In this document: positions 33,422 through 55,574 of the stretch, one piece after another
How the letters are laid out: each line of letters opens with the position of its first letter
How positions within the stretch are numbered: position 1 is the stretch's first letter
Source of the DNA: Candidatus Humimicrobiaceae bacterium
Lineage (GTDB): Bacteria > Patescibacteriota > Minisyncoccia > Minisyncoccales > DG-74-1
NCBI GenBank assembly: GCA_035530555.1
Contig: DATKUR010000010.1
Span: forward strand, 1-62,762
DNA: 62,762 bases
Direction: 5' to 3'
The notes under the pieces: generated by a model
What the model saw: only the letters and a program-made list of their open reading frames with translations
Told to the model about the DNA's origin: nothing
Database searches by the model: none
Program-made: the position numbers and the translations under genes

Positions 33422-33515
33422 GGAGGAGTGCTCCGAATTGGTAAGGAAGCGGTTTGCTAAACCGTAGAGCGCCTAAAAAGCGTTCTTGTGGGTTCGAGTC
33501 CCACCTCCTCCGCCA
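33422..33515 (+). tRNA. tRNA-Ser(GCT)
   Basis: GGAGGAG/CTCCTCC, GCGGT-TTGCTAA-ACCGT, long variable arm, GCCA. Confidence 0.93.
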
Positions 33516-33800: not shown

Positions 33801-34481
33801 ATGGATAAAGATATTGTATTAAAAGTTGAAAATCTGAATGTGGCTTTTGGTGAAGAGAAAGTTATTGAAGACTTAAGTTTCGATTTGAAGGAAAAAGAGC
33901 TTTTAGTGATTTTGGGGCCGAACGGAGCCGGAAAAAGCACTCTTTTGAAAACTCTATTAGGATTAATACCTTATGAGGGAAAAATACAGTGGAAAAATAG
34001 CGTCCATATTGGGTATGTGCCTAATGAATTTATAATCCCTGATAATCTTCCCCTGAATCTCAGGGAATTTTTCCAGTTTAAAAAAGATTCTCCTGAAAAA
34101 ATTTATAAAGCTCTTGAATGGGTTGGAATAAAATCTTCGGATAAAATTCTAGAGAAGAAATTGTATGCCCTTTCTTCCGGCCAGTTGAGAAGAACATTAA
34201 TTGCCTGGGCAATGTCTGATGACCCAGACATCATATTTTTAGATGAGCCGATGCTGTTTATTGATATCCATGGCAGAGAAACGATATATGATTCTTTGAC
34301 CAGGCTTTGGGAGGAAAAAAATCAGAGCATTATTCTGGTCAGTCACGAGGTAGGAGAGGTCTGCAAGAAAGCAGACAAAGTTCTGGCCTTGAATAAAATA
34401 AAGCTGTTTTATGGGCCGCCGAAAGAAATCATCACTCCTCAAAATTTAGCTAAAATTTATGGATCTCCAATTTCTCTATAG
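33801..34481 (+). CDS. Metal (Zn/Mn) ABC transporter ATPase, ZnuC-like
   Basis: GPNGAGKST, LSSGQ (variant signature), LDEP, VSH. Confidence 0.88.
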   Translation: MDKDIVLKVENLNVAFGEEKVIEDLSFDLKEKELLVILGPNGAGKSTLLKTLLGLIPYEGKIQWKNSVHIGYVPNEFIIPDNLPLNLREFFQFKKDSPEKIYKALEWVGIKSSDKILEKKLYALSSGQLRRTLIAWAMSDDPDIIFLDEPMLFIDIHGRETIYDSLTRLWEEKNQSIILVSHEVGEVCKKADKVLALNKIKLFYGPPKEIITPQNLAKIYGSPISL

Positions 34482-35226
34482 TTTAATAGTCGGTATTTTC
34501 ATCGGCGGGGTAGCGGGTTACCTCGGTTCTTTAATGATTACCAAAAGAATGGCTTTGGTCGGCGATGCATTGGGTCATGCAGCCTTGCCTGGGATAGCAC
34601 TAGCCCTGATTTACGGATTTAATCCTTCATGGGGAGCTATCCCTGCTTTATTTTTAGGAATTTTGGTTATTTGGTTTTTTGAAATGCACACTAAACTGCC
34701 CATGGAAGCGTTAACCGGTATCGTTTTTACGGCCAGTGTTGCCATTGCTTTTTTATTCTTACCGGAAAGCCAAGTTTCCAATGCTTTGATCGGCGATATT
34801 TCCAAAATAAGTCTTTCTGACACAATTTTTTCGGTAATTTTATCTATAATTGTTTTTCTGATTCTAAAAAAAATCTTCTCTAAGATGATTTTGACAAGCA
34901 TCTCAGAGGATGTGGCCAGAGTTGAACATATTGATACAAAAAAGTATAACTTTATTTATTTGGTTTGCATCGCTATCGTTGTGGCTTTGGGCATAAAAGT
35001 GACCGGTTCCCTATTGATGGGAGCTTTGGTAATTACTCCTGCAGCTGCCGCTAGGAACATGGCTTCCAATTTGTTTCAATATTCTTTCGGAGCTTTAATA
35101 ATTGGCGTTATTTCTTGTGTTTTGGGCATTTTGCTATTTAAAGTGTTTTCGTTGCCAGCTGGCCCCTTCGTTATTTTATCAGCTACATCGATATTTCTAA
35201 TTTCATTAATTTTTAAAAAACAATAG
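34459..35226 (+). CDS. Metal ABC transporter permease, ZnuB-like
   Basis: MALVGDALGHAALPGIA, PAAAAR; multiple TMs. Confidence 0.9.
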   Translation: MDLQFLYSLIVGIFIGGVAGYLGSLMITKRMALVGDALGHAALPGIALALIYGFNPSWGAIPALFLGILVIWFFEMHTKLPMEALTGIVFTASVAIAFLFLPESQVSNALIGDISKISLSDTIFSVILSIIVFLILKKIFSKMILTSISEDVARVEHIDTKKYNFIYLVCIAIVVALGIKVTGSLLMGALVITPAAAARNMASNLFQYSFGALIIGVISCVLGILLFKVFSLPAGPFVILSATSIFLISLIFKKQ

Positions 35227-35285
35227 AAGAAAGGTGTAATTAAAAATGGTCGTCAAGTTAAAATAAAAATTAAATTATTAAAATT

Positions 35286-35684
35286 ATGAAAGGATATACG
35301 ACAAACATTGAAAAAGATACCCTAGGAAACAATAACTTTCGTAAAGTATTATATACGGGAAAGCATAGCCAGTTGGTGTTGATGTCGCTTGCGCCAAAAG
35401 AAGAAATTGGCATGGAGGTTCACGAGGAAAATGACCAATTTTTCCGTTTTGAAAGAGGACAAGGGAAATGCATTATTGACGGCAACGAATATGATCTTGG
35501 TGATGGGGTAGCGGTTGTTGTGCCGGCCGGCGCTCAGCATAATATTATTAATACCTCTGATACGGAAGAGCTAAAATTATATACCATTTATTCGCCGGCT
35601 CATCATAAAGACGGCATCGTCCGTGTCACTAAAGAAGAAGCTGAGAGAAATGAAGCAGAATTCGACGGAAAAGCCACTGAGTAA
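35286..35684 (+). CDS. Cupin-domain protein
   Basis: FRKVLYT, EIGMEVH..DQFF, VPAG..HN, LYTIYSP..H. Confidence 0.9.
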   Translation: MKGYTTNIEKDTLGNNNFRKVLYTGKHSQLVLMSLAPKEEIGMEVHEENDQFFRFERGQGKCIIDGNEYDLGDGVAVVVPAGAQHNIINTSDTEELKLYTIYSPAHHKDGIVRVTKEEAERNEAEFDGKATE

Positions 35685-35694
35685 ATAAAATTCA

Positions 35695-35728
35695 AAAAAT
35701 CGCCTGCGCTTTAGCGCGGGCGGTTTTT
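35695..35728 (+). terminator. Intrinsic terminator
   Basis: ATCGCCTGCGC-TTTA-GCGCGGGCGGT hairpin followed by Ts. Confidence 0.75.
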
Positions 35729-35729
35729 A

Positions 35730-35780
35730 GTTATGAATATAAAAACTTGACACGGTATTGTTATGAATATATAATCATAA
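35730..35780 (+). promoter_or_regulatory. Consensus sigma70 promoter with overlapping palindromic operator
   Basis: TTGACA (35747) - 17 nt - TATAAT (35770); TTATGA-N8-TCATAA at 35761-35780. Confidence 0.75.
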
Positions 35781-35841
35781 TAGAGGGGCATTTATAAAGG
35801 TCCGGCCTCTCAAATAATAATAAATCTTAGATAATAAAAAT

Positions 35842-36099
35842 ATGCCAAGATATAACGGAACAGGCCCCATGGGCCAAGGTGCGGGCACCGGCTGGGGTTT
35901 AGGCCCTTGCGGAGCCGGAATGGGCTGGAGAAGAGGTGGCGGGCGCGGCAGGGGTTTCGGCTGGAGAAGGTTCTGGGGTTATTATCCCGGTCCTACTCCG
36001 ACTAAGAAAGAAGAAGTTGGAAATTTATCAGAGGAAGCTGCAATTTTAGAAGAAGAACTAAAAGCCATTAAAGCCCGTTTAACCGAACTTAAGGGGTAA
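35842..36099 (+). CDS. DUF5320-like Gly/Arg-rich protein
   Basis: MPxxxGTGPMGQG...GLGPC, GRGRGFG, C-terminal coiled coil. Confidence 0.85.
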   Translation: MPRYNGTGPMGQGAGTGWGLGPCGAGMGWRRGGGRGRGFGWRRFWGYYPGPTPTKKEEVGNLSEEAAILEEELKAIKARLTELKG

Positions 36100-36127
36100 A
36101 AATAATCTATATATAGTAAAAAATAAT

Positions 36128-37090
36128 ATGAAGATAAATTTCAATACTATCTTTTTAATCATATTTTTAGTTTGTGTGGCGGTAATTTTAATAAGTTTTT
36201 GCTATTTAAAATTTGGGATAGAAAAATCAAAAACGAATGAGGCAACCGGAATAAAACCTGAAGGAATTATGATTCTTATTGAGTCTACTGATAAGCCAAC
36301 GGGATTGCTTGAGATGGTTAGCCAAATGAAAGAAAGAAATATTTACGGCCTCCTAATGATAACTCCCGAATTTGTTAATGCGAATTGCGAGGATGTCAAG
36401 AAAGCTTTAAGTTATGGAAATATAGAGATTGTTGCTTCTAATGTTGGCGTACCTTTTTGGGACGTTCTTTATGATGAGCAAAAAACAAGAATTATAGAAA
36501 TGCTGGACGGCATTGAGTCTTGCACGGGAGTGCGGCCAAGAATTATTTCTTCAAGATATATGGCATCTGATATGAATACGATAAAAGTCGCCGAAGAGCT
36601 AGGAATACCTTATATCACCGCAAGAGGGACAACCGGAGACAAAGCCACGGTTTATCAGCCCGAAGAATATAACGTGAAAATTTTATCCGTTTCAAATATT
36701 CCTTTGGTTACTTTTGAATATGGAAGCCTTTGCGATTACTCATTTTACGAAAGAGCTGGAACCCCCAACGACATGAAAGCAGAATTAATGCGAGCGATAG
36801 AACCTTTAACATCTAAAGAAAAAGCATGGTCTGGAGAATATTCCAGGGTAACTCCTGTATCGCATACTTATATTGGAGGATATCTAAAGCAATGGAATGA
36901 TATGTGGCTTAACTTTTGGGATACTGCCAATGTTAAATGGGTAAGTTTAGATGAGTTTATGGCAGAACCGGATTGGACGATCCCATTATGGCAAATTCCA
37001 ATAAATAAAAATAATCCTTATACGGAAGAAAAAATCAGGCCCCTAGCTCCCTACGAGGAAGAGGATAAAGTTGGTAATATCTGCGAGTAA
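36128..37090 (+). CDS. Membrane-anchored protein, possibly polysaccharide-deacetylase-like fold
   Basis: N-terminal TM; EQ...I..TGVRP, ELGIPY, WVSLDE resemble NodB-type barrels but ligands are not clear. Confidence 0.5.
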   Translation: MKINFNTIFLIIFLVCVAVILISFCYLKFGIEKSKTNEATGIKPEGIMILIESTDKPTGLLEMVSQMKERNIYGLLMITPEFVNANCEDVKKALSYGNIEIVASNVGVPFWDVLYDEQKTRIIEMLDGIESCTGVRPRIISSRYMASDMNTIKVAEELGIPYITARGTTGDKATVYQPEEYNVKILSVSNIPLVTFEYGSLCDYSFYERAGTPNDMKAELMRAIEPLTSKEKAWSGEYSRVTPVSHTYIGGYLKQWNDMWLNFWDTANVKWVSLDEFMAEPDWTIPLWQIPINKNNPYTEEKIRPLAPYEEEDKVGNICE

Positions 37091-37118
37091 GATGAATAAT
37101 CAATTTTGAAATAATGTT

Positions 37119-37460
37119 ATGAAAATAGCAGTAAGCGCAACAGACAAAGATATCGAGAGCAGTGTTTCCGATGTTTTCGGCAGGTGTCCGTATTTTATCA
37201 TCGCCGAGATAGAAGGCGAAAAGATAAAAGAAACAGAGGCGGTGAAAAACGAAAGTACTGACCAGATGAGCGGAGCGGGTATTTCTGCGGCCCAATTGAT
37301 AGCCGATAAAAACGTCAACGCCGTAATAACAGGCAATGTCGGCCCGAGAGCTTTGGATGTGTTAAGACAATTTAACATTGAGATTTATTACTGTGATGGA
37401 ATAGTTAAGACTGTTTTGCAGGCATTCATTGACGGCAAGCTTAAGAAAATTGAAAAATGA
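37119..37460 (+). CDS. NifB/NifX-family (FeMo-cofactor-binding-like) protein
   Basis: MKIAV, FGRCPYF, GAGI.AAQ, ITGNVGP.A. Confidence 0.9.
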   Translation: MKIAVSATDKDIESSVSDVFGRCPYFIIAEIEGEKIKETEAVKNESTDQMSGAGISAAQLIADKNVNAVITGNVGPRALDVLRQFNIEIYYCDGIVKTVLQAFIDGKLKKIEK

Positions 37461-37816
37461 AAATAGTAATTCCGACAAATAACAGAAAGGGTTTGTCCGA
37501 TACGATAGCCGATCATTTTGGGCGTTGTTTGACTTATACTTTTCTAAATGAAAAGGGTGATGTTGAAGAAATCATAGAGAATACCAGCGAACATATGGGT
37601 GGTAAAGGATTGCCCCCAGAGCTTATGAAAAAACATGGGGCAGATATTCTTTTATGTAAAGATCTTGGTCCAAGAGCTTTAGCTTTGTGTGGTCAGTTAG
37701 GAATCAATGTTTATGTTAATCAAGCAGAAACGGTAAAAGAGATTTTTGAAATGTGGAAAAATAATAAAATTAAAAAGGCGGGTGTGGGAGATGTCTGTGA
37801 ACAACATAAATTATAA
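37457..37816 (+). CDS. NifB/NifX-family protein, second copy
   Basis: MKIVIP, HFGRC, LGPRA, C-terminal CEQH. Confidence 0.88.
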   Translation: MKIVIPTNNRKGLSDTIADHFGRCLTYTFLNEKGDVEEIIENTSEHMGGKGLPPELMKKHGADILLCKDLGPRALALCGQLGINVYVNQAETVKEIFEMWKNNKIKKAGVGDVCEQHKL

Positions 37817-37847
37817 GTTTGATTATTAATTTTAATTTAATAAATTT

Positions 37848-38354
37848 ATGGCTTTAATTCCTTCTTTAGAAAAAAATCAAGTTGAAGAAATTTCCAAAGA
37901 GGTTTATGAAAAATTTGAAAAAGAAACTGGCAAGGTGCCCGAGTGGGTTAAGGTAATGGCTCATAGCCCTAAGGTTTTAAAGGAATTTACTGAGCTTTTT
38001 AAGGCAATCATGGGCGAAAATAAAATAGAACCCTTGCTAAAATGGAAGATAGCCTTAGTGATTTCTGAAACCCTGAAATGTTCCTTCTGCGTTAGTGTCA
38101 CGCAAAAAATGTTGAAGCTCTTAGGAGCGAATGAAGAGATGATAGAAAAAATAAAAAATCTATCTACGGAAGACAAAGAAATTTTAGAATTAGTGAAGGA
38201 TATAACCTTGGATGGCCATCTTGATCAGCCAGAATTGTTTGAAAAACTGAAGGGAAAATTTAACGAGGCTCAAATTGTGGAGATAATTTCAGTAATGGGT
38301 CTTTTTAATTATATTAATAGATTTAATAATACTTTAGGCGTTTTGCCTGAATAA
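37848..38354 (+). CDS. AhpD/carboxymuconolactone decarboxylase family protein
   Basis: MAHSP, CSFC, QIVEI, NYINRFN. Confidence 0.85.
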   Translation: MALIPSLEKNQVEEISKEVYEKFEKETGKVPEWVKVMAHSPKVLKEFTELFKAIMGENKIEPLLKWKIALVISETLKCSFCVSVTQKMLKLLGANEEMIEKIKNLSTEDKEILELVKDITLDGHLDQPELFEKLKGKFNEAQIVEIISVMGLFNYINRFNNTLGVLPE

Positions 38355-38365
38355 AATAATTTAAT

Positions 38366-39238
38366 ATGAAAATCGCAGTAACTGGCGGAAAGGGTGGGGT
38401 GGGCAAGTCAATGGTCGCGACTTCACTGGCGGTAGAATTTTCAAGAAAAACTAAAATTATGTTGGTGGACGCAGACGCTGAATGCCCTAATGACCACCTT
38501 TTACTTTCTATAAAAAGAAAAAAATACACAACCGTTTATCAACCGATTCCCAAATGGGATTTTAATAAATGCACAAAATGTGGCAAGTGTGCTTCTATTT
38601 GTAAACAAAATGCCATTGTTTTTGTTAAAGGGAAATTTCCCGCCTTCGTGAAAGATGTTTGTATTGGTTGTAAGGCTTGCATTATTGCGTGTCCAACTGG
38701 CGCGATAACGGAAACTAAAAAAGAAATTGGTACAATTTATACGGGGAAGAAATATAATGTTAATTTGGTTTCAAGCGAGCTTAAATTAGGAGAGCTTGCT
38801 TCTGGCGAAGTTGTGGCTGAAGTAAGAAAATACTCCGATAAAATTAGTGAGAAAGTAAAAGCTGATATAATGGTTATAGACTCTTCGCCTGGAATCGGAT
38901 GTCCAGTAATTGCTTCGTTGGTTGGCACTGATTATATTGTAGCTGTAACCGAACCGACTCCTGCAGCTCTTTTTGATCTTAAAAGAGTTTTATATCTTGC
39001 TAATCATTTTGGGATTAAACACGGAATTGTTATCAATAAATTTGACCTTGCGGAAAATTTTTATAAAAAAATAGAGAAGTTTGCTAAAATAAATAAAATC
39101 CCAATTCTTGGTAGGATTCCTTATAGAAAGGATTTTGTTGATTCGATGATAAAAATGAAGCCGGTGGCTGAAATAAATCCAAAGTACCGGAAATTATTTC
39201 AAAAAATCATTGATCAAATAAAGCTGGTAATAAAATGA
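38366..39238 (+). CDS. MinD-superfamily P-loop ATPase with inserted 2x[4Fe-4S] ferredoxin domain
   Basis: GKGGVGKS, DADAECPN, two CxxCxxCxxxC motifs, PGIGCPV, VTEPT. Confidence 0.9.
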   Translation: MKIAVTGGKGGVGKSMVATSLAVEFSRKTKIMLVDADAECPNDHLLLSIKRKKYTTVYQPIPKWDFNKCTKCGKCASICKQNAIVFVKGKFPAFVKDVCIGCKACIIACPTGAITETKKEIGTIYTGKKYNVNLVSSELKLGELASGEVVAEVRKYSDKISEKVKADIMVIDSSPGIGCPVIASLVGTDYIVAVTEPTPAALFDLKRVLYLANHFGIKHGIVINKFDLAENFYKKIEKFAKINKIPILGRIPYRKDFVDSMIKMKPVAEINPKYRKLFQKIIDQIKLVIK

Positions 39239-40284
39239 AAGAAAAAATAGCAATTATTTCAATATTAGCGAATATGGTTCTGGCGGGAGGAAAAATCATT
39301 GTTGGTGTTTTTTCTGGTTCTTCCGCTATTTTGGCTGAAGGCATCCATTCTTTTATGGATATTTTTTCTTCAGCTATCGGATACATCGGGATTAAAATAT
39401 CTAAAAAACCTAGCGATCAAAAACATCCCTACGGCCATTATAAATTTGAGGTTCTGGCTGGTTTTTTTATAACATTAATCCTGCTCGGAACAGGCGTAGG
39501 AATTATTTATGAGGCATATCAGAAATTTTTAAACCCTTCTTCTATAAAAATACCGGTTTTAGCCTTTAGTGTAATGATTTTTTCAGCGTTGATTAACGAA
39601 ATAATGGCGCGTCTGAAAATCCATTTTGGTAAAAAGGAAAATTCAATGGCTTTGCTTTCAGATGGTTTTCATTCAAGGGTTGATGTTTTTACTTCTTTAG
39701 CAGTTTTTGCCGGCTTGTTTTTAACAAGGTACTGGATTTATACTGACTCAGTTTTAGCTTTTTTAATTGGTCTTTATATTGTTAAACAATCTTTTGCATT
39801 AGGTAAAGAAGCAGTTGATTCTTTGCTTGATGTTTCTGCCGGAGAAAAAATTGAGGAAAAAATAAGAACAATTTCCAAAAAAGAAAACATTGAAATCTCC
39901 TCTTTAAAAACCCAGAAAAAAGGATCAGCCGTTACCGCCAATTTAGAAATAAAACTTCCAAATAATTTAAAAGTGGAAGAAGCAACTAAAATTTCAAATA
40001 ATTTAAGAGAAAAACTTATGAAGGAGATAGAAAGCCTTCAGTATGTTGCCATTCAGATCACCAGCCATGAAGTGGAAACAGGATTTTATAAGCCCTCTTT
40101 CGGACAAGGATTCGGCTGGCAGAGGAGAGGCAGATTCAAAGGGGAGCTTGAGAAAGCTGCTGGAGAAGGACCGGGCGGATATTGTGTTTGTCCTGAATGT
40201 GACTATAAGATTCCTCATGAACGCGGTGTTCCTTGCTCGACTCTTGAGTGTCCAAATTGTAAAATTAAATTAATTAGAAAATAA
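39235..40284 (+). CDS. Cation diffusion facilitator with C-terminal Cys-rich domain
   Basis: HSFMD, HPYGH, HSRVD; tail GPGGYCVCPEC...C...CPNC. Confidence 0.9.
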   Translation: MKEKIAIISILANMVLAGGKIIVGVFSGSSAILAEGIHSFMDIFSSAIGYIGIKISKKPSDQKHPYGHYKFEVLAGFFITLILLGTGVGIIYEAYQKFLNPSSIKIPVLAFSVMIFSALINEIMARLKIHFGKKENSMALLSDGFHSRVDVFTSLAVFAGLFLTRYWIYTDSVLAFLIGLYIVKQSFALGKEAVDSLLDVSAGEKIEEKIRTISKKENIEISSLKTQKKGSAVTANLEIKLPNNLKVEEATKISNNLREKLMKEIESLQYVAIQITSHEVETGFYKPSFGQGFGWQRRGRFKGELEKAAGEGPGGYCVCPECDYKIPHERGVPCSTLECPNCKIKLIRK

Positions 40285-40285
40285 T

Positions 40286-40561
40286 ATGGTAAGACCATTA
40301 AAACCAAGAAAAGTATTATTTGATCCAAATGTGATATATTTCAAACCAAGAGCAGTTCCTCTTTCTATGTTAGAAGAAGTAGATTTGGGTATAGACGAGC
40401 TGGAAGCTTTACGCCTTTGCGATTATAAAAATTTGGAACAAACCGAAGCCGCAAAGAAGATGAAGATTTCCCAGAGTACCTTTCAGCGAATTTTAACCTC
40501 AGCCCATAAAAAAGTTGCTGAATCTCTAATTGAAGGTAAAGCGATAAAAATAATTAAATAG
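40286..40561 (+). CDS. DUF134-family putative DNA-binding protein
   Basis: MVRP.KPR, FKP, ELEALRL.D...Q.EAA..M.IS..TF.RIL..A. Confidence 0.9.
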   Translation: MVRPLKPRKVLFDPNVIYFKPRAVPLSMLEEVDLGIDELEALRLCDYKNLEQTEAAKKMKISQSTFQRILTSAHKKVAESLIEGKAIKIIK

Positions 40562-40616: not shown

Positions 40617-41978
40617 CTATTCCTCGATTAAAGTAATTTTCTTGTCTTTATAATTCAGCCGGCTTCGCAAGTTTGCCAGCAGTTCGCGCTTGTCCGATAC
40701 ACTGCCTTCTTTTAATAAGTACTTGGCATATTGCCGGATATTTACATCGTCTTCCTCAACAAGCGCGTTGCCCGATTTTCCATTAACGATTTTCTGCAGT
40801 TTATTAAATCTTCTGATCTCATCCTCAAGTTTCTGCCTCATGCCTAATTCATTGATATTAACCTTGTCCATAATTTTTAAAAGTTCATCGATCAGTTCTT
40901 CTTCGCGAATGTATTTGTTTTTGCAGTTCCGATCCCTTGCCCGACTACAGCCGTAATAGATGTAATGCGCAGAAGTGCCGTCTTTAAGCGGTTTCCATTT
41001 TTCTTCGGCTGATATACCGGATCCGCAGTAACCGCAGGTAAATAATTTTGTAAAAGCAAATTCTTTATTTTCTCTGACTATTTGATCGCGTTTCAGTTGT
41101 GCTTGGGCTTTTTCAAACAATTCCTGCGTAATCAACGGCTGATGTTTACCTTGATACCAATTACCGCTTTCTCTTGGATATTCGAATGGCCCATAATAAA
41201 ACGTGTTATCAAGTATGCGGTAAACCCCCGAAAGCGTGAGCGGCTTATTTCCTCGTGTATGAAAATTAAGCTCAAACTTGAGCCAGTTATAAATTTTTCT
41301 GCCCGAATAATGTTCATAAGCCACTTTCTCAAACATTTTCTTTACCATTGGAGACCGTGCGGGATCAACCATAATCTGGCATTTCTTATCCATCAGTTTC
41401 TGATTAAGATACCCGAGCGGTGCTACTCCCGGCCATAATCCCATTTCGACTCTTGTCCGCAGTCCGCGTTTGACGTTAATACCCCTATTGTCGTTTTCAA
41501 GTTTTGCCTGCGATCCGAGAATCATTAAAAGGAATTTTTCATTCGGATTATTGCTGAATCTTTGACCGTAGGTGCGGATTTCCAAAAGCAGCTTTGCATC
41601 CATTAAATCCACTATCTTGCCGAGATCCCCGGCATTCCTTGAAATACGATCCGGTGCCCAGGTCAGAATGCCGTTAAACTTTCCCTGTTTTATTTCTTCG
41701 ACTATTTCATTGAAGATCGGTCGCTGGCCGGTTTCTTTTGCCGAGTGCGATTCGCGCTTGATCTCGGCGATATCAAGACCCTCTCGCTCAGCGAGCTGCA
41801 TCATCTCTTTGACCTGAGAATCAATGGAGAGGATTTGCCGTTCTTCACTTTCGGTCGATTTCCTTGCGTAGAGGCAGTATTTGATTTTGGTCGGCTGTAT
41901 TTGAGCAGTCTGCCCCTTGATACTCCCCAAGCCAGCCGTAAATGTTGTATTATTCATACAACACAATGGATGACGCAA
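40617..41978 (-). CDS. Large serine recombinase (start may be 41957)
   Basis: YARKST catalytic Ser, DRISR, APLGY recombinase domain, CGYC...C...C zinc ribbon. Confidence 0.93.
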   Translation of the reverse strand: MRHPLCCMNNTTFTAGLGSIKGQTAQIQPTKIKYCLYARKSTESEERQILSIDSQVKEMMQLAEREGLDIAEIKRESHSAKETGQRPIFNEIVEEIKQGKFNGILTWAPDRISRNAGDLGKIVDLMDAKLLLEIRTYGQRFSNNPNEKFLLMILGSQAKLENDNRGINVKRGLRTRVEMGLWPGVAPLGYLNQKLMDKKCQIMVDPARSPMVKKMFEKVAYEHYSGRKIYNWLKFELNFHTRGNKPLTLSGVYRILDNTFYYGPFEYPRESGNWYQGKHQPLITQELFEKAQAQLKRDQIVRENKEFAFTKLFTCGYCGSGISAEEKWKPLKDGTSAHYIYYGCSRARDRNCKNKYIREEELIDELLKIMDKVNINELGMRQKLEDEIRRFNKLQKIVNGKSGNALVEEDDVNIRQYAKYLLKEGSVSDKRELLANLRSRLNYKDKKITLIEE

Positions 41979-42045
41979 TCCTCAAAAGGAGTCCAGAGCG
42001 TCCCAGTTGGCAGACAGTTGATAACTTATTTCCGCAAAAACGCCA

Positions 42046-43365
42046 TCACATTATCGGGTTATCGTAGGGATCGAAGAAAATCTCTTTTTCTGGTGCCGCA
42101 TTGTCGTAAAAGCCGTAATCATTATCCATTTTATTCTCAACAAGAGCCGCATAGCGATGGACATCAGCGGCGTGCGAAGTCCAATTGTGATACGGAATCT
42201 CTCTGAACATATTTCTCTTATCATCCCACTCACGTTTGTATTCTGAAATTGCGTCAACCCACAGCGCGCATTTTTCTTTGTCTATCATTAGTCTGTCAAA
42301 CATAAATTTACCTATTTGAATTCCATCATCCACATTGGTTTTCGGATCAATAACACTGAATGGTAATCCAAGGTTTTTGGCAAAATCTATTCTTGCCTTT
42401 CCGGTGCTTGCTTCCCGAGCGTTTATATCGTGCGGCGCAAAGTGAGTTCCGTAGTTATACTCTTTTCGTCTTACAGCAGAAACCGCTTGATCGATTCCGT
42501 CATTTTCTGTTCCCTGCCAATAATCGATCATGTGTATTCTCGCCCCGATACGCTGATAAAATCCGATAGCCATCGCCGGTCCGACTCCAATATCCCAAAC
42601 CGTATGCACTTTGCACTCACGTTGCCACGGAACAGCGGTTATCCGGTTATCACTTCTTGCCCTTGCCAGTTCTTGCGCGTAAACCGCACCCTTTGCCGAA
42701 GAATTAAATGAACAGTAAAGTTCCTGCATAAATTCCTCTTGAGACATCGTTTTTCTCGAATTTTCTATTTCTTTCGGATCAATTACCCCGGTGTCATCCA
42801 CTGTCAGGTGGCAGGTAAACCATTCGCTGTCATTTTTATGTATTTCGTACAGAAAATAGAATTCGTTTCTGCCTTTTGGTGTTCCGATCCAGATTCCGTA
42901 TCCGCCATTTTCCAGAAGCGTCGGGCGGATTACTTCGGTAAAGATATTATTCGGTTGCATGCCGTATTCATCAAACACGACACCGCTTAACCCTATACCT
43001 CTCAGCCGATCCGGGTTTTCTGCGCCAAACAGTGTTATTTTTGACCCACCCGGAAAATTTACCGACAGTTCGGATTCTTTACATATCACACCTGGAAATT
43101 TCGTGTATCTTTTTAGTATGCCCCAGGCAACGCTTTTGGCCATTTTGTAGGTTGGGGCAATATATGCATACTTTGTGCCGGGTTTTTTAACCGCGTCGTA
43201 TACCAGATAATTCAACGCCGCAGTTGTTTTTCCGGCACGGCGATGCACCACAAGCACCATCCAGCGCTTGTCAGTTTCGTGAAATGGGATAGCCCATTTT
43301 CGCGGACTGTATAAACTTGGAAATTTGTCCATAATTTTAATTTTTCTGATTATGATTGAATTCAA
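42046..43365 (-). CDS. Phage terminase large subunit (start may be 43332)
   Basis: Walker A HRRAGKT, APT, Walker B VVFDE, IGTP coupling motif, nuclease WDIG and HAAD..RY. Confidence 0.9.
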   Translation of the reverse strand: MNSIIIRKIKIMDKFPSLYSPRKWAIPFHETDKRWMVLVVHRRAGKTTAALNYLVYDAVKKPGTKYAYIAPTYKMAKSVAWGILKRYTKFPGVICKESELSVNFPGGSKITLFGAENPDRLRGIGLSGVVFDEYGMQPNNIFTEVIRPTLLENGGYGIWIGTPKGRNEFYFLYEIHKNDSEWFTCHLTVDDTGVIDPKEIENSRKTMSQEEFMQELYCSFNSSAKGAVYAQELARARSDNRITAVPWQRECKVHTVWDIGVGPAMAIGFYQRIGARIHMIDYWQGTENDGIDQAVSAVRRKEYNYGTHFAPHDINAREASTGKARIDFAKNLGLPFSVIDPKTNVDDGIQIGKFMFDRLMIDKEKCALWVDAISEYKREWDDKRNMFREIPYHNWTSHAADVHRYAALVENKMDNDYGFYDNAAPEKEIFFDPYDNPIM

Positions 43366-43705
43366 CGTCTATAGGCGTAGTGATTTCAATCTTTGTTTTA
43401 TTGTATTTAGGGTGACGTTTTTCAAGCCGGTAATGAATTGCCGGCCAGAATTTTTCTTTTACCAATGATAACAGCTGATGTTCGCTCATATCATTGAAGA
43501 ATTCATCACCTTCGGCCATGGCTTCTTCGACCGCTTTGGCGAATCCCGGATCCTCGCTTCTCCAGCGGTAATAAGTGGCCTTTCCTATGCCTGCTTTTTC
43601 GCAGGCCAACAGCTGAATCGGATATTTCTTCAACTGTTCAAGCAAAATTTCTTTTTCTTTTGCCTGCCGTATTTTAATTGTTTTACGTTTTTTAGCGTTA
43701 TTCAT
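43337..43705 (-). CDS. HTH protein, putative terminase small subunit
   Basis: ACEKAGIGKATYYRW...DPGF HTH, AI.Y.L; directly upstream of TerL. Confidence 0.72.
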   Translation of the reverse strand: MNNAKKRKTIKIRQAKEKEILLEQLKKYPIQLLACEKAGIGKATYYRWRSEDPGFAKAVEEAMAEGDEFFNDMSEHQLLSLVKEKFWPAIHYRLEKRHPKYNKTKIEITTPIDVEFNHNQKN

Positions 43706-45020
43706 AAATTTTCTTTGGCTTTATGCCAGTTAATTTTATCCAGCGGTGAATTATCACCTCTGTGTATACTGGCGATTTCTCTATGACATAACAGCGTCGC
43801 TTCATTTTCTCGGCCGCAATCAAAGTACTTCCCGATCCGCCAAACGGTTCGACAATCAAGTCGCCGCGTTTGGTGAGTACCTTGATGTAGGGAATAAGAA
43901 TCTCGATCGGCTTTGTGCCGAACACAACTCCCTGTCCAGAATTTTTCTCGTCACCCGCTTTATATTCGATGAAATCAGTCGGACAGATTCTTTTGCCTTT
44001 TTCGTAGCCTTCCCATTGCGGCCTACCTGCAATGGCATACAGGGCAGTTTCGTATTCGCTCTGAAGTTCTTCTGCTTCCGGTTCAAGATTGAGCCGCATT
44101 TTCTTTGAGGTTCCGACCATGGCAATGTCGTGCTTCGAAAAGAATCTGTATTTTGCGGCAAATCCCTGCGTGCGATTAGGAAGATGCCAGACCAGCATGT
44201 TTTTTATCTTCCAGTATTTCTCAAGCTCGCCCCAAATAGTTCTAATATTCTTCCAATTTTCGTAAACAATAATATGGAAGTCCGGTTTGGCAATCTTTGC
44301 GATATTTGCCATCCACTTTTCGGTAAAGTCTGGCGGAAGAACATCGGTGCCAAGATATTTTCTGTTGCGCTTGAATCCGAATCCTGATCCCTTGCCCTTA
44401 TATTTGGTATGCAAATAATCCAAAATATATGGAGGGTCGGTAAAGCACATATCAGCTTTTTTGCCATTCATAAGCTTTACAATATTTGTCTGAATAGTTG
44501 AATCGCCGCACATGAGGCGATGTGTTCCCAGCTGATATACGTCGCCGTTTTTAACTGTGATGTTCTTGATATCCAGTTTTGCCAGTTCTTTCTCCAAATC
44601 AAATTCATCCGGTAGATCTTCAACCGCGAATATGTCATCCAGTTCTTCCGAAGAGAAACCGATATCTGCCAGAAACGATTCTTTGAAGTTTGTTAGTAAA
44701 TCCCAGTCAAACTCGCCGGTATTCTTATTGAGCCTCAGATTCAATTCCTTCTCCTTTTCAATATCGGGGATATTGAGATACACGACCGGTATCTCAGTAA
44801 TTCCGATTTCTTTGGCAATCGACAGACGGAAATGTCCGCCGATCACAACTCCTCTGCGTTCCGGTGAAAAATTTGCAATAATTGGATCAACAAAGCCGTA
44901 TTTTTTGATGCTGGCCTTAAGATGTTTTATTGCTTCTTTGTTCCACTTGCGCGGGTTGTATTCCGATGGACGAAGCTGATTTATCGGAACATAAACGATT
45001 TTTAAATTATTATTTGTCAT
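43698..45020 (-). CDS. ParB-like domain fused to N4/N6 DNA methyltransferase
   Basis: YNPRK, GFVDPI, GGHFRL; HRLMCGDST, TDPPY, EPFGGSGST. Confidence 0.9.
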   Translation of the reverse strand: MTNNNLKIVYVPINQLRPSEYNPRKWNKEAIKHLKASIKKYGFVDPIIANFSPERRGVVIGGHFRLSIAKEIGITEIPVVYLNIPDIEKEKELNLRLNKNTGEFDWDLLTNFKESFLADIGFSSEELDDIFAVEDLPDEFDLEKELAKLDIKNITVKNGDVYQLGTHRLMCGDSTIQTNIVKLMNGKKADMCFTDPPYILDYLHTKYKGKGSGFGFKRNRKYLGTDVLPPDFTEKWMANIAKIAKPDFHIIVYENWKNIRTIWGELEKYWKIKNMLVWHLPNRTQGFAAKYRFFSKHDIAMVGTSKKMRLNLEPEAEELQSEYETALYAIAGRPQWEGYEKGKRICPTDFIEYKAGDEKNSGQGVVFGTKPIEILIPYIKVLTKRGDLIVEPFGGSGSTLIAAEKMKRRCYVIEKSPVYTEVIIHRWIKLTGIKPKKIYE

Positions 45021-45059: not shown

Positions 45060-45305
45060 GCGTTGATTGATATCGACCACGGCATAAGGAGCCGCATCAA
45101 TCGGTAGAACAAAAAACAGGGAACGCAATGCGTTCCCCGGTGGTTTAAAATGAAAAAGTCCGAAAATCAAATTACCAAGAAAGCATTGCGGTGTTAAATG
45201 CAATGTTTGGCAATTTCATTTCCGGATTCTTTGCTGGCAATTTATATCCAGGTATAAATCCTGAAACCCTTAAAGTTAAGGCTTACCCTGTTTTTAATGT
45301 TCTGA
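45060..45305 (-). ncRNA. Structured 5' leader with terminator/antiterminator potential (candidate)
   Basis: Terminator GGGAACGC-ATT-GCGTTCCC-TGTTTTTT; long hairpin 45159-45226; 5' end complementary to the terminator 3' arm; TTGACA and TGnTATAAT just upstream (45313-45338). Confidence 0.55.
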
Positions 45306-45440
45306 CAATTGCATTATAGCATAGTTAAAGCATGTCAACAAGCCCTGTTGGTAACTCGCTTTACAATTCTGGTGGTTGAGCTAGGGTACAGTGGACGAAA
45401 GTGTCAAAAAGAAGTAAAATTTAAATATAATTTAATATCA

Positions 45441-45594
45441 GTCACCTAAACTTGCCATTTCGGCAGGCATGGTGCAAAAAACCCGTCAAAGGTACTAAGC
45501 TCGTCGTCAGAGCACCTTTGACGGGTCATATCCCGAAAGGGGTATGGGTAGCCGAAAGGCTATCGCTGGCGGCGAGCTTTGTGTTTTCCGCCAG
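45441..45594 (+). ncRNA. Five-hairpin structured RNA with 14-bp alternative pairing (candidate)
   Basis: 13-bp perfect stem, two GAAA-tetraloop stems, G-U pairs on the + strand, loop 45497-45510 complementary to 45566-45579. Confidence 0.65.
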
Positions 45595-45608
45595 AATAAC
45601 TAACTGAG

Positions 45609-46727: not shown

Positions 46728-46958
46728 ATGGTGCAAGATACTAAAAAAGAGGATCGCGCCACTCGTTTTAAAAGGGTTGCGCAGAGAAGAACCGAGAATA
46801 TTCTTAATTCCCTTCGGGTTTTGGGTAATTGCTCAAATAAAAGTTCATATCAATATACCGATGAAGACGTAGTAAAAATTTTTAGGGCGATAGAAGAACA
46901 ATTACGTATAACAAAAATGAAGTTTCGTTCTTCTCGTCGCCAAAAATTTAGCTTATAA
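46728..46958 (+). CDS. Small basic helical protein (76 aa), unknown function
   Basis: RFKRVAQRRTENIL..L..LGN.SN...Y.Y...DV..IF; own promoter-like region, 16 nt from the next gene. Confidence 0.75.
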   Translation: MVQDTKKEDRATRFKRVAQRRTENILNSLRVLGNCSNKSSYQYTDEDVVKIFRAIEEQLRITKMKFRSSRRQKFSL

Positions 46959-46974
46959 ATATTAACCTTTAATT

Positions 46975-49554
46975 ATGGACTACAACAATAATAAAGAAAT
47001 ATTATTAAAACTACTATTATCTCAGACTTCTGATGAGATTGAAAAAATAGTTAATACGGAGCCATTTTTTAAAAATTGTGAATGGATTCCTTACGGTGGG
47101 AGATCAAATAATGTCGGTACAATCGAGGGTCAGATGCGAGATGCGGATAACGCGTTGATAGAAAAAATTACAAATTCAATTGACGCAATTTTAATGAGGC
47201 GTTGTTATGAAGAGGGCATTGATCCGAGAGATAAAACGAAAGCACCGAAATCGATGGCGGAAGCTCTAGAAAGATTTTTTGGCGGAAAAGAAAAAATAAG
47301 AGAAAAAAGATCGGAATTTGCAAAAGAATGGTTGCGGGTTACGGCCGAGGGAAAAAAAGACAGGCCTACAATTACGGTTATCGATAAAGGAGAGGGTCAA
47401 CAGCCAAACGAAATTAAAGAAACGATACTTAGTTTAAACAAAGATATAAAAGAAAAAATATCTTTTGTTTACGGCACATATAATCAAGGTGGCTCTAGCC
47501 CGTTAGGTTATGCTGGTAATTCCACGTCATACGATTTTAATTATTTACAATTGATATTATGCCGACGCGCCACAACAATTAAGGATAAAATTCGCGCCAA
47601 GAATTACGATTACTACGGTTTTTCTCTTGTCAGAAAAAAGTTTGACTACACCGCACAGAAATTTACTTACGAATATTTCGTTGAAAAAGATTCAAAAGAT
47701 ATATTTTCGTTCCCCTTTGATAAACCTATTAAAATTGATGATTATGATTTTTTGGAAGGGTGTCTAGTCAAACTATATGATTATCAACTCCCCCAGAGGG
47801 GTAATATTGTTTTTAGAGGTTTAAATGAATTTATTGAAAAGAAATTACCGGATGCCCCATTACCCATTTACCTTAAAGAATTAAGAGATTATAAGGGGGG
47901 TATTGATTATACTATCTTTGGCCTCCGTGAAAAATTGCTTAGAAAAGAAGATATTTTGAGAGAGGGATACCCGCAAAAATTGCCTATTGATCTTGGTGAG
48001 ATTGGGAAAAGAGAGATAGAAGTTTTTATTCTCCAACACAAAACTCAGGCCAGGGAAGATTTGAGCCCCTACATTGAGCAAACAATATCGGAAAAGATAT
48101 TTTTCATAAAAGACGGACTCGTCCTCCATACAGAGAACACGTCTTGGTTAAGAAACGAATGCGATCTTGTTGATCTTTCCCCCTACCTCTTCGCTTTTAT
48201 AGACATCTCAAATATCGATCCCCCTGTCGCTCAAATGCTTCATTCGGGTCGGGAAAAATTTAAAAATAACGCGACAACTCGTTTAGCTCTTGAAAGGCTT
48301 AAGATTTTCCTTAGTAATGAAACATTTAAAGAACTAGATGCTGAATACGGGCGTCTTTCCGTTGGATCGGAAAGCTCCTTCAAAGACGATACTTTACGCA
48401 AACAATTAATGAAAGATTTTGAAGCCCAACCGGAATTGAGAGAATTTTTTGAATTAGGAGAAGATATACCTACAAAAGAAGGCGAGGGAGAGAAACCGCT
48501 ACCACCCTACGAAGGCACTTATCTTCCAGAAAAATTTGAATTATTAGGATTAGATCCCCGAGAAGTAGAAGAAGGCTCTTATTGTAAAATTACTTTTAAT
48601 ACGGAAGCAGATGAAAGATTACTTGAAAGACGAGACGATCGAGGAGAGTATGATTGGGGAAAATCAGAGAAATTTCAGATTGCTTTTAGCTCATATAAAA
48701 GGGGTAAGCTAACCTTTCGGGTTGATCCCAACCGCGATACAGGGGCGCCCGTAGAAGAAGCTATTCTGTTTCATTTACGCGTGCCTTCAAAAAACATAGA
48801 ATTCAGTAAGCCGGTAACAATTATAGTGAAAGAGAAAGTACGATATATTGGTAAAGAATTTCCCTCGTTTTTCAAAAAGACGAAGGAATTGTTACATATT
48901 CCCTTAGGTTCGGAAAGAAAATTACATTTCGCTACAGACGTCGTAAATAATTATTTTGACAGACAGACTAGCCCGGGTAAACTAATTATTGAAAAACACG
49001 ATTTTCTTAACTTCGGAAATCCAAAATTAAAAGATGGAATTTTGGAGATAAGAGTCGGATATACTGGAGAAAAAATACAAAAAATTAATAATATCAAAAT
49101 AGCGATCGATGACAACATGCGGAATCATTTTGAGTTAATTATGCCTGTTGAGATTACTCCACCCGAAAGCGAGCCACAGCTTAAATTGCCAAAACCTATC
49201 ACTATTGAGAAGAAGAATTGGAGTAACGATACACCTCAATGGGATGAAAATTGTGTTGCTCGTATTCCTTCCTGGAAAGAATTAAAAACAATTAAAATTA
49301 ATATAGATGCGAAACCGTTCGATGAGTTGAAAAAGATGATTATAGCAGACCGAGATTCTGCGCGTGATCTCTTAATAAGACAGATTTATATAAATTCAGT
49401 ATGGATGTTTTTAGAGTTTAAAGATTTACAAGTTACATCAGCTGGTACCAATGGGAAAATAAAAGATCTCGACCCGAGGGAGGAGATCTTTGAAATGGGA
49501 ATTCGTGCAGCAACAAAAAATTCTCTCCAGAATATTAAAAAACTTCTACGTTAA
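46975..49554 (+). CDS. GHKL (MORC/MutL-like) ATPase with long uncharacterised C-terminus
   Basis: N box ALIEKITNSIDA, G1 box IDKGEG, G2-like GTYNQGGS. Confidence 0.75.
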   Translation: MDYNNNKEILLKLLLSQTSDEIEKIVNTEPFFKNCEWIPYGGRSNNVGTIEGQMRDADNALIEKITNSIDAILMRRCYEEGIDPRDKTKAPKSMAEALERFFGGKEKIREKRSEFAKEWLRVTAEGKKDRPTITVIDKGEGQQPNEIKETILSLNKDIKEKISFVYGTYNQGGSSPLGYAGNSTSYDFNYLQLILCRRATTIKDKIRAKNYDYYGFSLVRKKFDYTAQKFTYEYFVEKDSKDIFSFPFDKPIKIDDYDFLEGCLVKLYDYQLPQRGNIVFRGLNEFIEKKLPDAPLPIYLKELRDYKGGIDYTIFGLREKLLRKEDILREGYPQKLPIDLGEIGKREIEVFILQHKTQAREDLSPYIEQTISEKIFFIKDGLVLHTENTSWLRNECDLVDLSPYLFAFIDISNIDPPVAQMLHSGREKFKNNATTRLALERLKIFLSNETFKELDAEYGRLSVGSESSFKDDTLRKQLMKDFEAQPELREFFELGEDIPTKEGEGEKPLPPYEGTYLPEKFELLGLDPREVEEGSYCKITFNTEADERLLERRDDRGEYDWGKSEKFQIAFSSYKRGKLTFRVDPNRDTGAPVEEAILFHLRVPSKNIEFSKPVTIIVKEKVRYIGKEFPSFFKKTKELLHIPLGSERKLHFATDVVNNYFDRQTSPGKLIIEKHDFLNFGNPKLKDGILEIRVGYTGEKIQKINNIKIAIDDNMRNHFELIMPVEITPPESEPQLKLPKPITIEKKNWSNDTPQWDENCVARIPSWKELKTIKINIDAKPFDELKKMIIADRDSARDLLIRQIYINSVWMFLEFKDLQVTSAGTNGKIKDLDPREEIFEMGIRAATKNSLQNIKKLLR

Positions 49555-55339: not shown

Positions 55340-55500
55340 GACACAGAGTGACATACCCGCAAAAGTGTCCCATTTGTCCCAATTGTAAAAATTGACCCCC
55401 GACCCACGTGCCTCAATCTGGCTCTGGAAAAATTCGCCAAAAAGTGCAATAATACCTCTATAAAGAGCGATATCCGGGGTACTTAACCCGAATGTCCCGC

Positions 55501-55574
55501 CAGGTAGTGAAAGTTTGACCGGGCTTGCCCGAATTTGTTCGTCTACGACGAACAAGTCAAATTTCTACTACCTG
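55501..55574. repeat. About 74-bp palindromic REP/MITE-like element, copy 2 (inverted relative to 11002-11074)
   Basis: CAGGTAGTGAAAGTTTGAC...GTCAAATTTCTACTACCTG with inner TTGTTCGTC-TAC-GACGAACAA. Confidence 0.85.

Follow-up and report, generated by a model that had tools for sequence, protein, structure and literature searches.

A conserved candidate leader RNA with a possibly switchable terminator in front of the terminase genes of an island in a CPR bacterium

The window (the whole stretch of DNA analysed here, 62,762 nucleotides of a contig from Candidatus Humimicrobiaceae bacterium; genome G000, 643 kb, 95% complete) contains an island of ~22 kb between two CCGCCA cores, and at locus L037 sequences resembling the two window ends meet at a single CCGCCA. 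The island carries packaging genes, a recombinase gene and a known RNA, as follows.

33510..33515, plus strand: left island end, CCGCCA at the 3' end of tRNA-Ser(GCT)
40617..41978, minus strand: large serine recombinase (PF00239, PF07508, PF13408)
42046..43365, minus strand: terminase large subunit (TerL), intact frame with ATPase and nuclease motifs
43337..43705, minus strand: terminase small subunit-like HTH protein (TerS; PHROG 4044, E 1.7e-08)
43698..45020, minus strand: ParB-N / N6-N4 DNA methyltransferase fusion (ParB-methylase), first gene downstream of the leader
45443..45564, plus strand: LOOT RNA (RF03000, 94.3 bits), transcribed away from the leader
55497..55502, plus strand: right island end, second CCGCCA core

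The TerL motifs, which we take to indicate ATPase and nuclease function, are retained in all six copies checked, and no match to capsid, portal or tail families was found among the 24 island proteins, 12 of which were compared with PHROGs and the rest with Pfam only. Among the cargo are a type II methylase and a GajB-like helicase. The left part of the cargo (33801-40561, plus strand) is metal-related, with an ABC-3 transporter, a cupin, two FeMo-cofactor-type proteins, a CMD protein, a 4Fe-4S P-loop ATPase, a cation efflux protein and a DUF134 protein. Head-on to the type II methylase (46728-49554, plus strand) are genes for proteins of 76 and 859 amino acids with no Pfam or PADLOC match, possibly an undescribed restriction-type module. 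At related loci, a SAM riboswitch match lies within the island cargo of L027 (4227-4337, minus strand), and a second ParB-methylase/TerS island stands in tandem past the attachment junction of L037 (10400-13314).

A first-pass annotation of this DNA, made from the letters alone, had proposed that one attenuator-like leader governs both the terminase and the recombinase genes. For the recombinase this is plausible, with putative co-transcription and no promoter call in the spacer between it and TerL (0/6). The same spacer (41968-42027, minus strand) holds an element conserved in 6/6 loci, in which a GACGC/GCGTC inverted pair surrounds CTCTGGAC-like bases. Ahead of this element stands AAGTTATCAAC, similar to GTTACCAACAGG, which lies just 5' of the -35 hexamer of the leader (45355-45344). 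The spacer element and the AAGTTATCAAC-like sites are possibly a shared protein site or a leader of the recombinase.

On the minus strand, the region between the promoter and the start codon (ATG, 45020) of the ParB-methylase gene is built, from 5' to 3', as follows.

45313..45338, minus strand: promoter-like site, TTGACA, 14 nt and TATAAT with a TG extension
45286..45303, minus strand: conserved 5' segment, pairs with 45121-45106
45247..45281, minus strand: two short, lineage-variable hairpins (45281-45268 and about 45265-45247)
45200..45232, minus strand: strand 1, the 5' strand of a long protector hairpin and candidate trigger-binding site
45153..45190, minus strand: strand 2, the 3' strand of the long hairpin, with the predicted antiterminator strand in its apical part (45190-45175)
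45111..45139, minus strand: intrinsic terminator with a 10-bp stem (strand 3, 45139-45130; strand 4, 45126-45117) and six U (45116-45111)
45065..45102, minus strand: 3' stem with a bulged GGTCGA, 45-82 nt upstream of the start codon, in the read-through RNA only

Most of these parts had been named in the first-pass annotation and were recovered where it had placed them: the TTGACA hexamer (45338-45333) separated by 14 nt from the extended -10 box TGCTATAAT (45321-45313), the two short hairpins, the long hairpin with G-U pairs on the minus strand, and the terminator with its U tract behind a stem at 45139-45117. The long hairpin (45232-45153) has 30 bp including three G-U pairs, and folds at -29.0 kcal/mol on the minus strand vs. 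-23.4 kcal/mol on the plus strand. The leader as a whole (251 nt) reaches -78.7 kcal/mol (z = -5.79, 0/200 shuffles as stable), compared with -69.7 kcal/mol on the plus strand. The 3' stem is a fourth, partly conserved stem that the earlier annotation did not contain, nor did it list the divergent LOOT RNA. The word GGTCG, bulged in this stem, is also mildly enriched 30-39 nt 5' of long ORFs in G000, often as AAAGGTCG (7 vs. 2.3 expected per 10-nt bin).

In the G000 genome, promoter spacers of 16, 17 and 18 nt were seen 9, 9 and 6 times and a spacer of 14 nt twice. Since the 14-nt spacer is off the genome mode (16–18 nt), the leader promoter is likely better taken as an extended -10 type. Among eight homologous leaders the spacer is 14 nt in four, all with the TG, and 16-17 nt in the other four. 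An inverted repeat (CAACA-N5-TGTTG; 45336-45350, minus strand) overlaps the -35 hexamer; it is operator-like, also present in L024, and altered in L148.

Homologues of the leader were found at six other loci, together with one distant copy (L151) and one partial copy (L150), all of them preceding ParB-methylase/TerS/TerL genes. The full-length set consists of seven leaders in four lineages (WIN, i.e., the window, L024, L027, L037, L136, L141 and L148), and L136, which has the same leader as L149, was counted once. Among the best 80 of 148 ParB-methylase loci, the leader is present in three, which are the same three that have a close TerL, a fourth having just a 31% partial TerL. Pattern and protein scans added L136 (= L149), L141, L148, the partial L150 and the distant L151 (33.9 bits), all with TerL. 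The leader is tied to the TerL-bearing cassette.

Outside this set, the leader used as a DNA query gave short matches only (19-42 nt) in 400 genomes of the phylum and 400 of the order. A covariance model run on 150 relatives gave six weak non-self matches (24-37 bits), which on inspection were terminator pairs or other hairpins. Pattern scans of viral_contigs returned 0, 0, 8 and 15 matches, of which 3/8 and 3/15 were contigs already in the set and the rest were chance-like, and in a pattern scan of metagenomes two of eight matches were real. TerL matches in G101 and G893 do not extend into the leader region, and 17 phage loci with about 34-54% identical ParB-methylases, inspected by eye, mostly have a gene upstream and not this leader. 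In Rfam, the leader had no match at the gathering score (best E 0.85, an unrelated family) and fits no known riboswitch, T-box or other leader model; there was likewise no Rfam match 5' of the ParB-methylase gene in 16 further loci. Searches of a literature collection with few subscription papers brought up no report of this leader or island.

The first-pass annotation had proposed covariation among homologous leaders as a check, and compensatory changes are present in both the long hairpin and the terminator. In the seven-row alignment of the long hairpin base, terminator and 3' stem, 95.8% of cells are paired (31-55% in slid controls), and two-sided changes occur in 8 of the 41 pairs; the covariation score was matched by 0/500 shuffles, a result that is not a probability because the rows are related. 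MAFFT misaligns the hairpin apex, which was anchored by motif instead. The terminator stem has two-sided changes in 3/9 pairs with 98% of cells paired, and the 3' stem, missing in the distant L151, in 2/11 pairs with 92% paired. A tract of 4-8 U stands directly behind the G+C-rich stem in 7/7 leaders, and the 5' domain ranges in length from about 50 to 160 nt. Judged by these comparisons, the leader is a real, conserved RNA that has not been catalogued.

Strong hairpins followed by a U tract (≤ -25 kcal/mol), of unrelated sequence, lie 5' of 28 of the 78 ParB-methylase genes vs. 4 of 110 host genes, where the 78 include near-duplicates, the 110 were sampled from 387, and the cut-off was chosen after one of -12 kcal/mol had failed to discriminate (44/78 vs. 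35/90). Therefore, gating by a leader seems to recur among these islands. Other recurring leader families 5' of ParB-methylase genes are those of L032, L041, L067, L083 and L090 and of L058, L062 and L069. No Rfam match was found in the upstream regions of L032, L041, L083, L090 and L058, and each family may be another uncatalogued RNA.

How the terminator might be opened is suggested by a second partner for its 5' side. Of all upstream sequence, the stretch that pairs best with the terminator 5' arm and loop is the 3' side of the apex of the long hairpin, in 7/7 leaders and in L151 (8/8). The duplexes between strands 2 and 3 have energies of -19.6, -19.7, -23.0, -20.9, -15.8, -13.8 and -17.3 kcal/mol in the seven leaders, matched in 2, 0, 0, 0.7, 6, 19 and 4% of 300 genome windows in the same order, i.e., 0-6% in six of seven. 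Over eight leaders, the energy is significant in five, borderline in one and not significant in two, L136 (19%) and L151 (20%). The distant L151, which was not used in finding the helix, has the same register at -10.1 kcal/mol and a C-G to U-A change (read from the sequences), and the register carries lineage-specific extensions of up to about 18 bp in L037 and L141. The core of the helix is nearly invariant and shows little covariation, with a mismatch in WIN and L024. Cognate duplexes average -17.5 kcal/mol vs. -14.6 kcal/mol for cross-lineage ones, the cognate being best only in some rows. Of 13 ordinary terminators in G000, six reach -13.8 kcal/mol, the weakest value among the seven leaders, and one reaches -19.6 kcal/mol.

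In folding predictions, the terminator wins when strand 1 is free to pair (P(terminator) 0.82-1.00 in 7/7 leaders), and the antiterminator forms as the arm emerges when strand 1 is held unpaired (P(antiterminator) 0.79-1.00 in 7/7; 0.82 in L151). The latter, "on" fold carries an energy penalty of +6.6 to +22.9 kcal/mol. After strand 4 has emerged, the terminator is again favoured at equilibrium in 4/7 leaders even with strand 1 blocked, and likewise in L151; therefore, the "on" state must be kinetic. Predictions for the window leader have strand 1 initially bound to the 5' side of the second short hairpin, with a probability of about 0.75 until 140 nt have been made; such an upstream decoy helix is equalled in 2-3% of shuffles in three leaders and in 9-30% in four. 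This transient pairing, of modest significance, is a possible built-in leak.

Taken together, the leader has a terminator between promoter and first gene, an exclusive strand for the terminator 5' arm and a hairpin that sequesters this strand, and we hypothesize that it acts as an attenuator of the protector/antiterminator/terminator type, off by default and opened by a putative factor, a proposal that we regard as evenly balanced between true and false. Transcription would begin near 45306. In the off fold, strands 1 and 2 would form the 30-bp protector and strands 3 and 4 the terminator, and release at about 45111 would yield an RNA of roughly 195 nt. With strand 1 occupied, as in the on fold, the apical part of strand 2 would pair with strand 3 as the latter exits the polymerase, the terminator would come too late to form, and transcription would continue; after read-through, the 5' end would close onto the U tract and the following bases, and the 3' stem would fold. 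The methylase, terminase and probably recombinase genes would thus stay off until the factor occupies strand 1. The parts of this proposal differ in strength. The default-off state has good support from the conserved terminator and the predicted folds, whereas switching, through a helix other than that first proposed, could go either way. The sequences, their conservation and the gene context are observed, both folds are predictions, and any switching in vivo is our inference. The RNA switch of the first-pass annotation thus survives as a conserved leader, predicted to be off by default, with a real intrinsic terminator, but not in its antiterminator helix, as discussed below.

Conditional terminators follow a scheme of strands 1:2 and 3:4 vs. 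2:3 (PMC5314783). The leader shares this four-strand logic (1:2 and 3:4 closed, 2:3 open), the position of the terminator in a 5' leader and a closed fold that is the most stable (PMC5314783). It differs in that its protector is a 30-bp hairpin, with no aptamer, T-box, leader peptide or known protein site found, and in having an extra end-closing helix and a 3' stem and sitting on a terminase island.

The first-pass annotation had also likened the leader to CI attenuation in P4, and this holds in concept only. In both, premature termination in the leader of a satellite-like element silences genes, and one segment is complementary to sites up- and downstream. The CI-controlled site of P4 is Rho-dependent; the Rho RNA-binding domain was not found in G000 (95% complete), with which an intrinsic mechanism fits. 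In P4, termination is brought about by a processed CI RNA that base-pairs with seqA and seqC (PMC4825925). By contrast, the window leader is predicted to terminate without a trans RNA, no separate antisense RNA with two targets and no Rfam match to CI/C4-type RNAs were found for it, and it gates packaging and recombinase genes rather than replication genes. A CI system proper was rejected as a candidate: the terminator is predicted to form unaided, the complementary strand is paired within the hairpin apex in the window leader, and L037 and L141 lack the 5' CATT. Since termination is predicted unaided here, whereas P4 needs a processed antisense RNA, the leader would work like a conditional intrinsic terminator and not like P4 CI.

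Alternatively, the terminator might be fixed and leaky and merely dampen the operon, with the roughly 195-nt RNA a by-product or a trans-acting small RNA (loosely a CI-like self-immunity RNA, or a substrate of RNase III) and the complementarity between apex and arm a relic of local duplication or a repeated binding motif. Several observations are consistent with this: the leader has three CATT-like words, the on fold comes at a high energy cost, the strong hairpin and U elements on sister islands are unrelated in sequence, and RNase III is encoded in G000. Terminators that limit expression before mobile-element genes have also been described, as "mobile attenuators" upstream of IS genes (PMC2965389). 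However, these insulate against outside promoters (PMC2965389), whereas the window leader stands behind a promoter of the element itself and possesses a conserved protector as well as an alternative helix. Further, a register with the terminator 5' arm that is retained in 8/8 leaders and extended in L037 and L141 argues against a relic, and a 30-bp upstream hairpin kept by compensatory change would be superfluous for a lone terminator. We consider the fixed terminator doubtful, though with an appreciable chance of being right; if it is, the leader is uncatalogued but ordinary.

A gate like that of lambdoid late genes, at which a Q- or N-like protein of a helper phage would load on the polymerase at a promoter-proximal element and read through regardless of RNA refolding, seems unlikely. 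The late leader of lambda is about 200 nt long. The order of promoter, about 195-nt leader, intrinsic terminator and packaging genes resembles that of lambdoid PR'/tR' with Q (10.1101/651190, PMC9191641 and PMC8632103). A short motif 7-10 nt downstream of the -10 box is retained in 8/8 leaders and resembles a -10-like pause element, as a resemblance only, or boxA, and NusB is encoded in G000. However, the motif agrees with boxA at 8-9 of 12 positions, a level reached by 28 of 117 promoter calls in G000, and it lacks the third-position T of the boxA consensus given in PMC5725501. boxA is not enriched downstream of host promoters in G000, and upstream of the 16S gene no boxA-like motif was seen by eye. 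A scan of 24 island proteins gave no Q- or N-type match, Q acts without an alternative RNA helix, and the conserved long hairpin and the alternative helix would be left unexplained. Outside the island, a strong promoter, a boxA-like word and a hairpin leader precede an ORF on contig C6 of G000 (about 63500-63880, minus strand).

The two remaining explanations concern the pairing of the 5' end. The first-pass annotation had noted that the 5' segment can pair with the 3' arm of the terminator and the U tract, and this pairing (45303-45286 with 45121-45106) was found at -19.6 kcal/mol, with 0/500 shuffles as good. It is conserved in part: it beats shuffles in five of seven leaders (0-2 of 500), but is not significant in L027 and L136, and its five closing pairs are retained in 6/7. 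The further claim that this pairing excludes termination failed, as the minimum-energy fold contains both, and forcing the pairing costs 0.3 kcal/mol (-64.5 vs. -64.8 kcal/mol) and leaves a 6-bp terminator core in place. Because the bases past U7 supply one third of the helix energy in the window and over half of it in L037, L141 and L148, the helix would be completed only after read-through. Blocking the first 20 nt leaves P(terminator) unchanged (0.82-1.00 in 7/7 leaders). We therefore read the 5'-end helix, on these models, as closing the read-through leader and not as an antiterminator.

It is conceivable that the functional product is instead this read-through RNA, a multi-stem non-coding RNA closed end to end and cut from the operon transcript, in which the apparent terminator is one of the stems. 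Pairing of the 5' end past the U tract in 5/7 leaders, with its retained closing pairs, is in keeping with such an RNA, as is the presence of genes for RNase III and the RNase P protein in G000. However, the U tract right after the G+C-rich stem in 7/7 leaders, the variable length of the 5' domain and the lack of significance of the closing helix in L027 and L136 make it quite improbable. Antitermination by invasion of the 3' arm and U tract by the 5' end, as first suggested, is hardly tenable: the pairing, though strong and conserved in 5/7 leaders, is compatible with the terminator core, has a large share of its energy past U7 and is without effect on P(terminator) when blocked, and in oligonucleotide-mediated termination assays (PMC3351154) a strand paired to the terminator 3' arm mimics the hairpin and releases the RNA.

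For the attenuator proposed above, candidate triggers were sought around strand 1. A leader peptide is not conserved, by eye (15 codons in WIN and L024, seven in L037 and L141, other frames in L027 and L136, no start in L148), and searches inside the islands for a trans RNA partner for strand 1 gave nothing above shuffled controls (three shuffles each). LOOT was rejected as an antisense partner, with a longest complement of 6-8 nt and the cognate pair no better than non-cognate ones. The putative trigger would most likely be a protein or RNA from a helper phage, the most economical choice for an island with a packaging motor but without a capsid match. More specifically, the leader might be a phage sensor, in which RNA or protein of the helper binds strand 1 and flips the antiterminator, such that the terminase and recombinase of a capsid-less island appear only while a helper is infecting the cell, and the unrelated long-hairpin leaders on sister islands might be interchangeable sensors for different helpers; we think this full version improbable, if worth stating. 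If true, satellites of a little-described class in CPR bacteria would have an induction switch that works at the level of RNA. Little on gene control in CPR bacteria or their mobile elements was found in the literature searched. Any switch here would show how a capsid-less island keeps a nuclease-bearing terminase and a recombinase silent, and its 33-nt target (45232-45200) could serve as bait for the inducer, hence for the putative helper phage. The off and on folds are open to plain in vitro transcription, without culture of the host.

The LOOT RNA shares the island with the leader and lies about 130 nt from it, on the other strand and with no more than 8 nt of complementarity. It stands divergent beside five of the seven leaders, including that of the window, and takes the same position in 4/6 homologous loci. 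RNA run X1 (4% of words) covers only a relative of LOOT, a 181-nt LOOT-like contig. In 5/5 copies (45443-45600, plus strand, in the window) a fifth hairpin, outside the Rfam model, is present downstream of LOOT. The RNA occurs in 30 of 151 genomes of the phylum, and three of 29 non-self LOOT loci have a ParB-methylase or recombinase gene within 1.5 kb.
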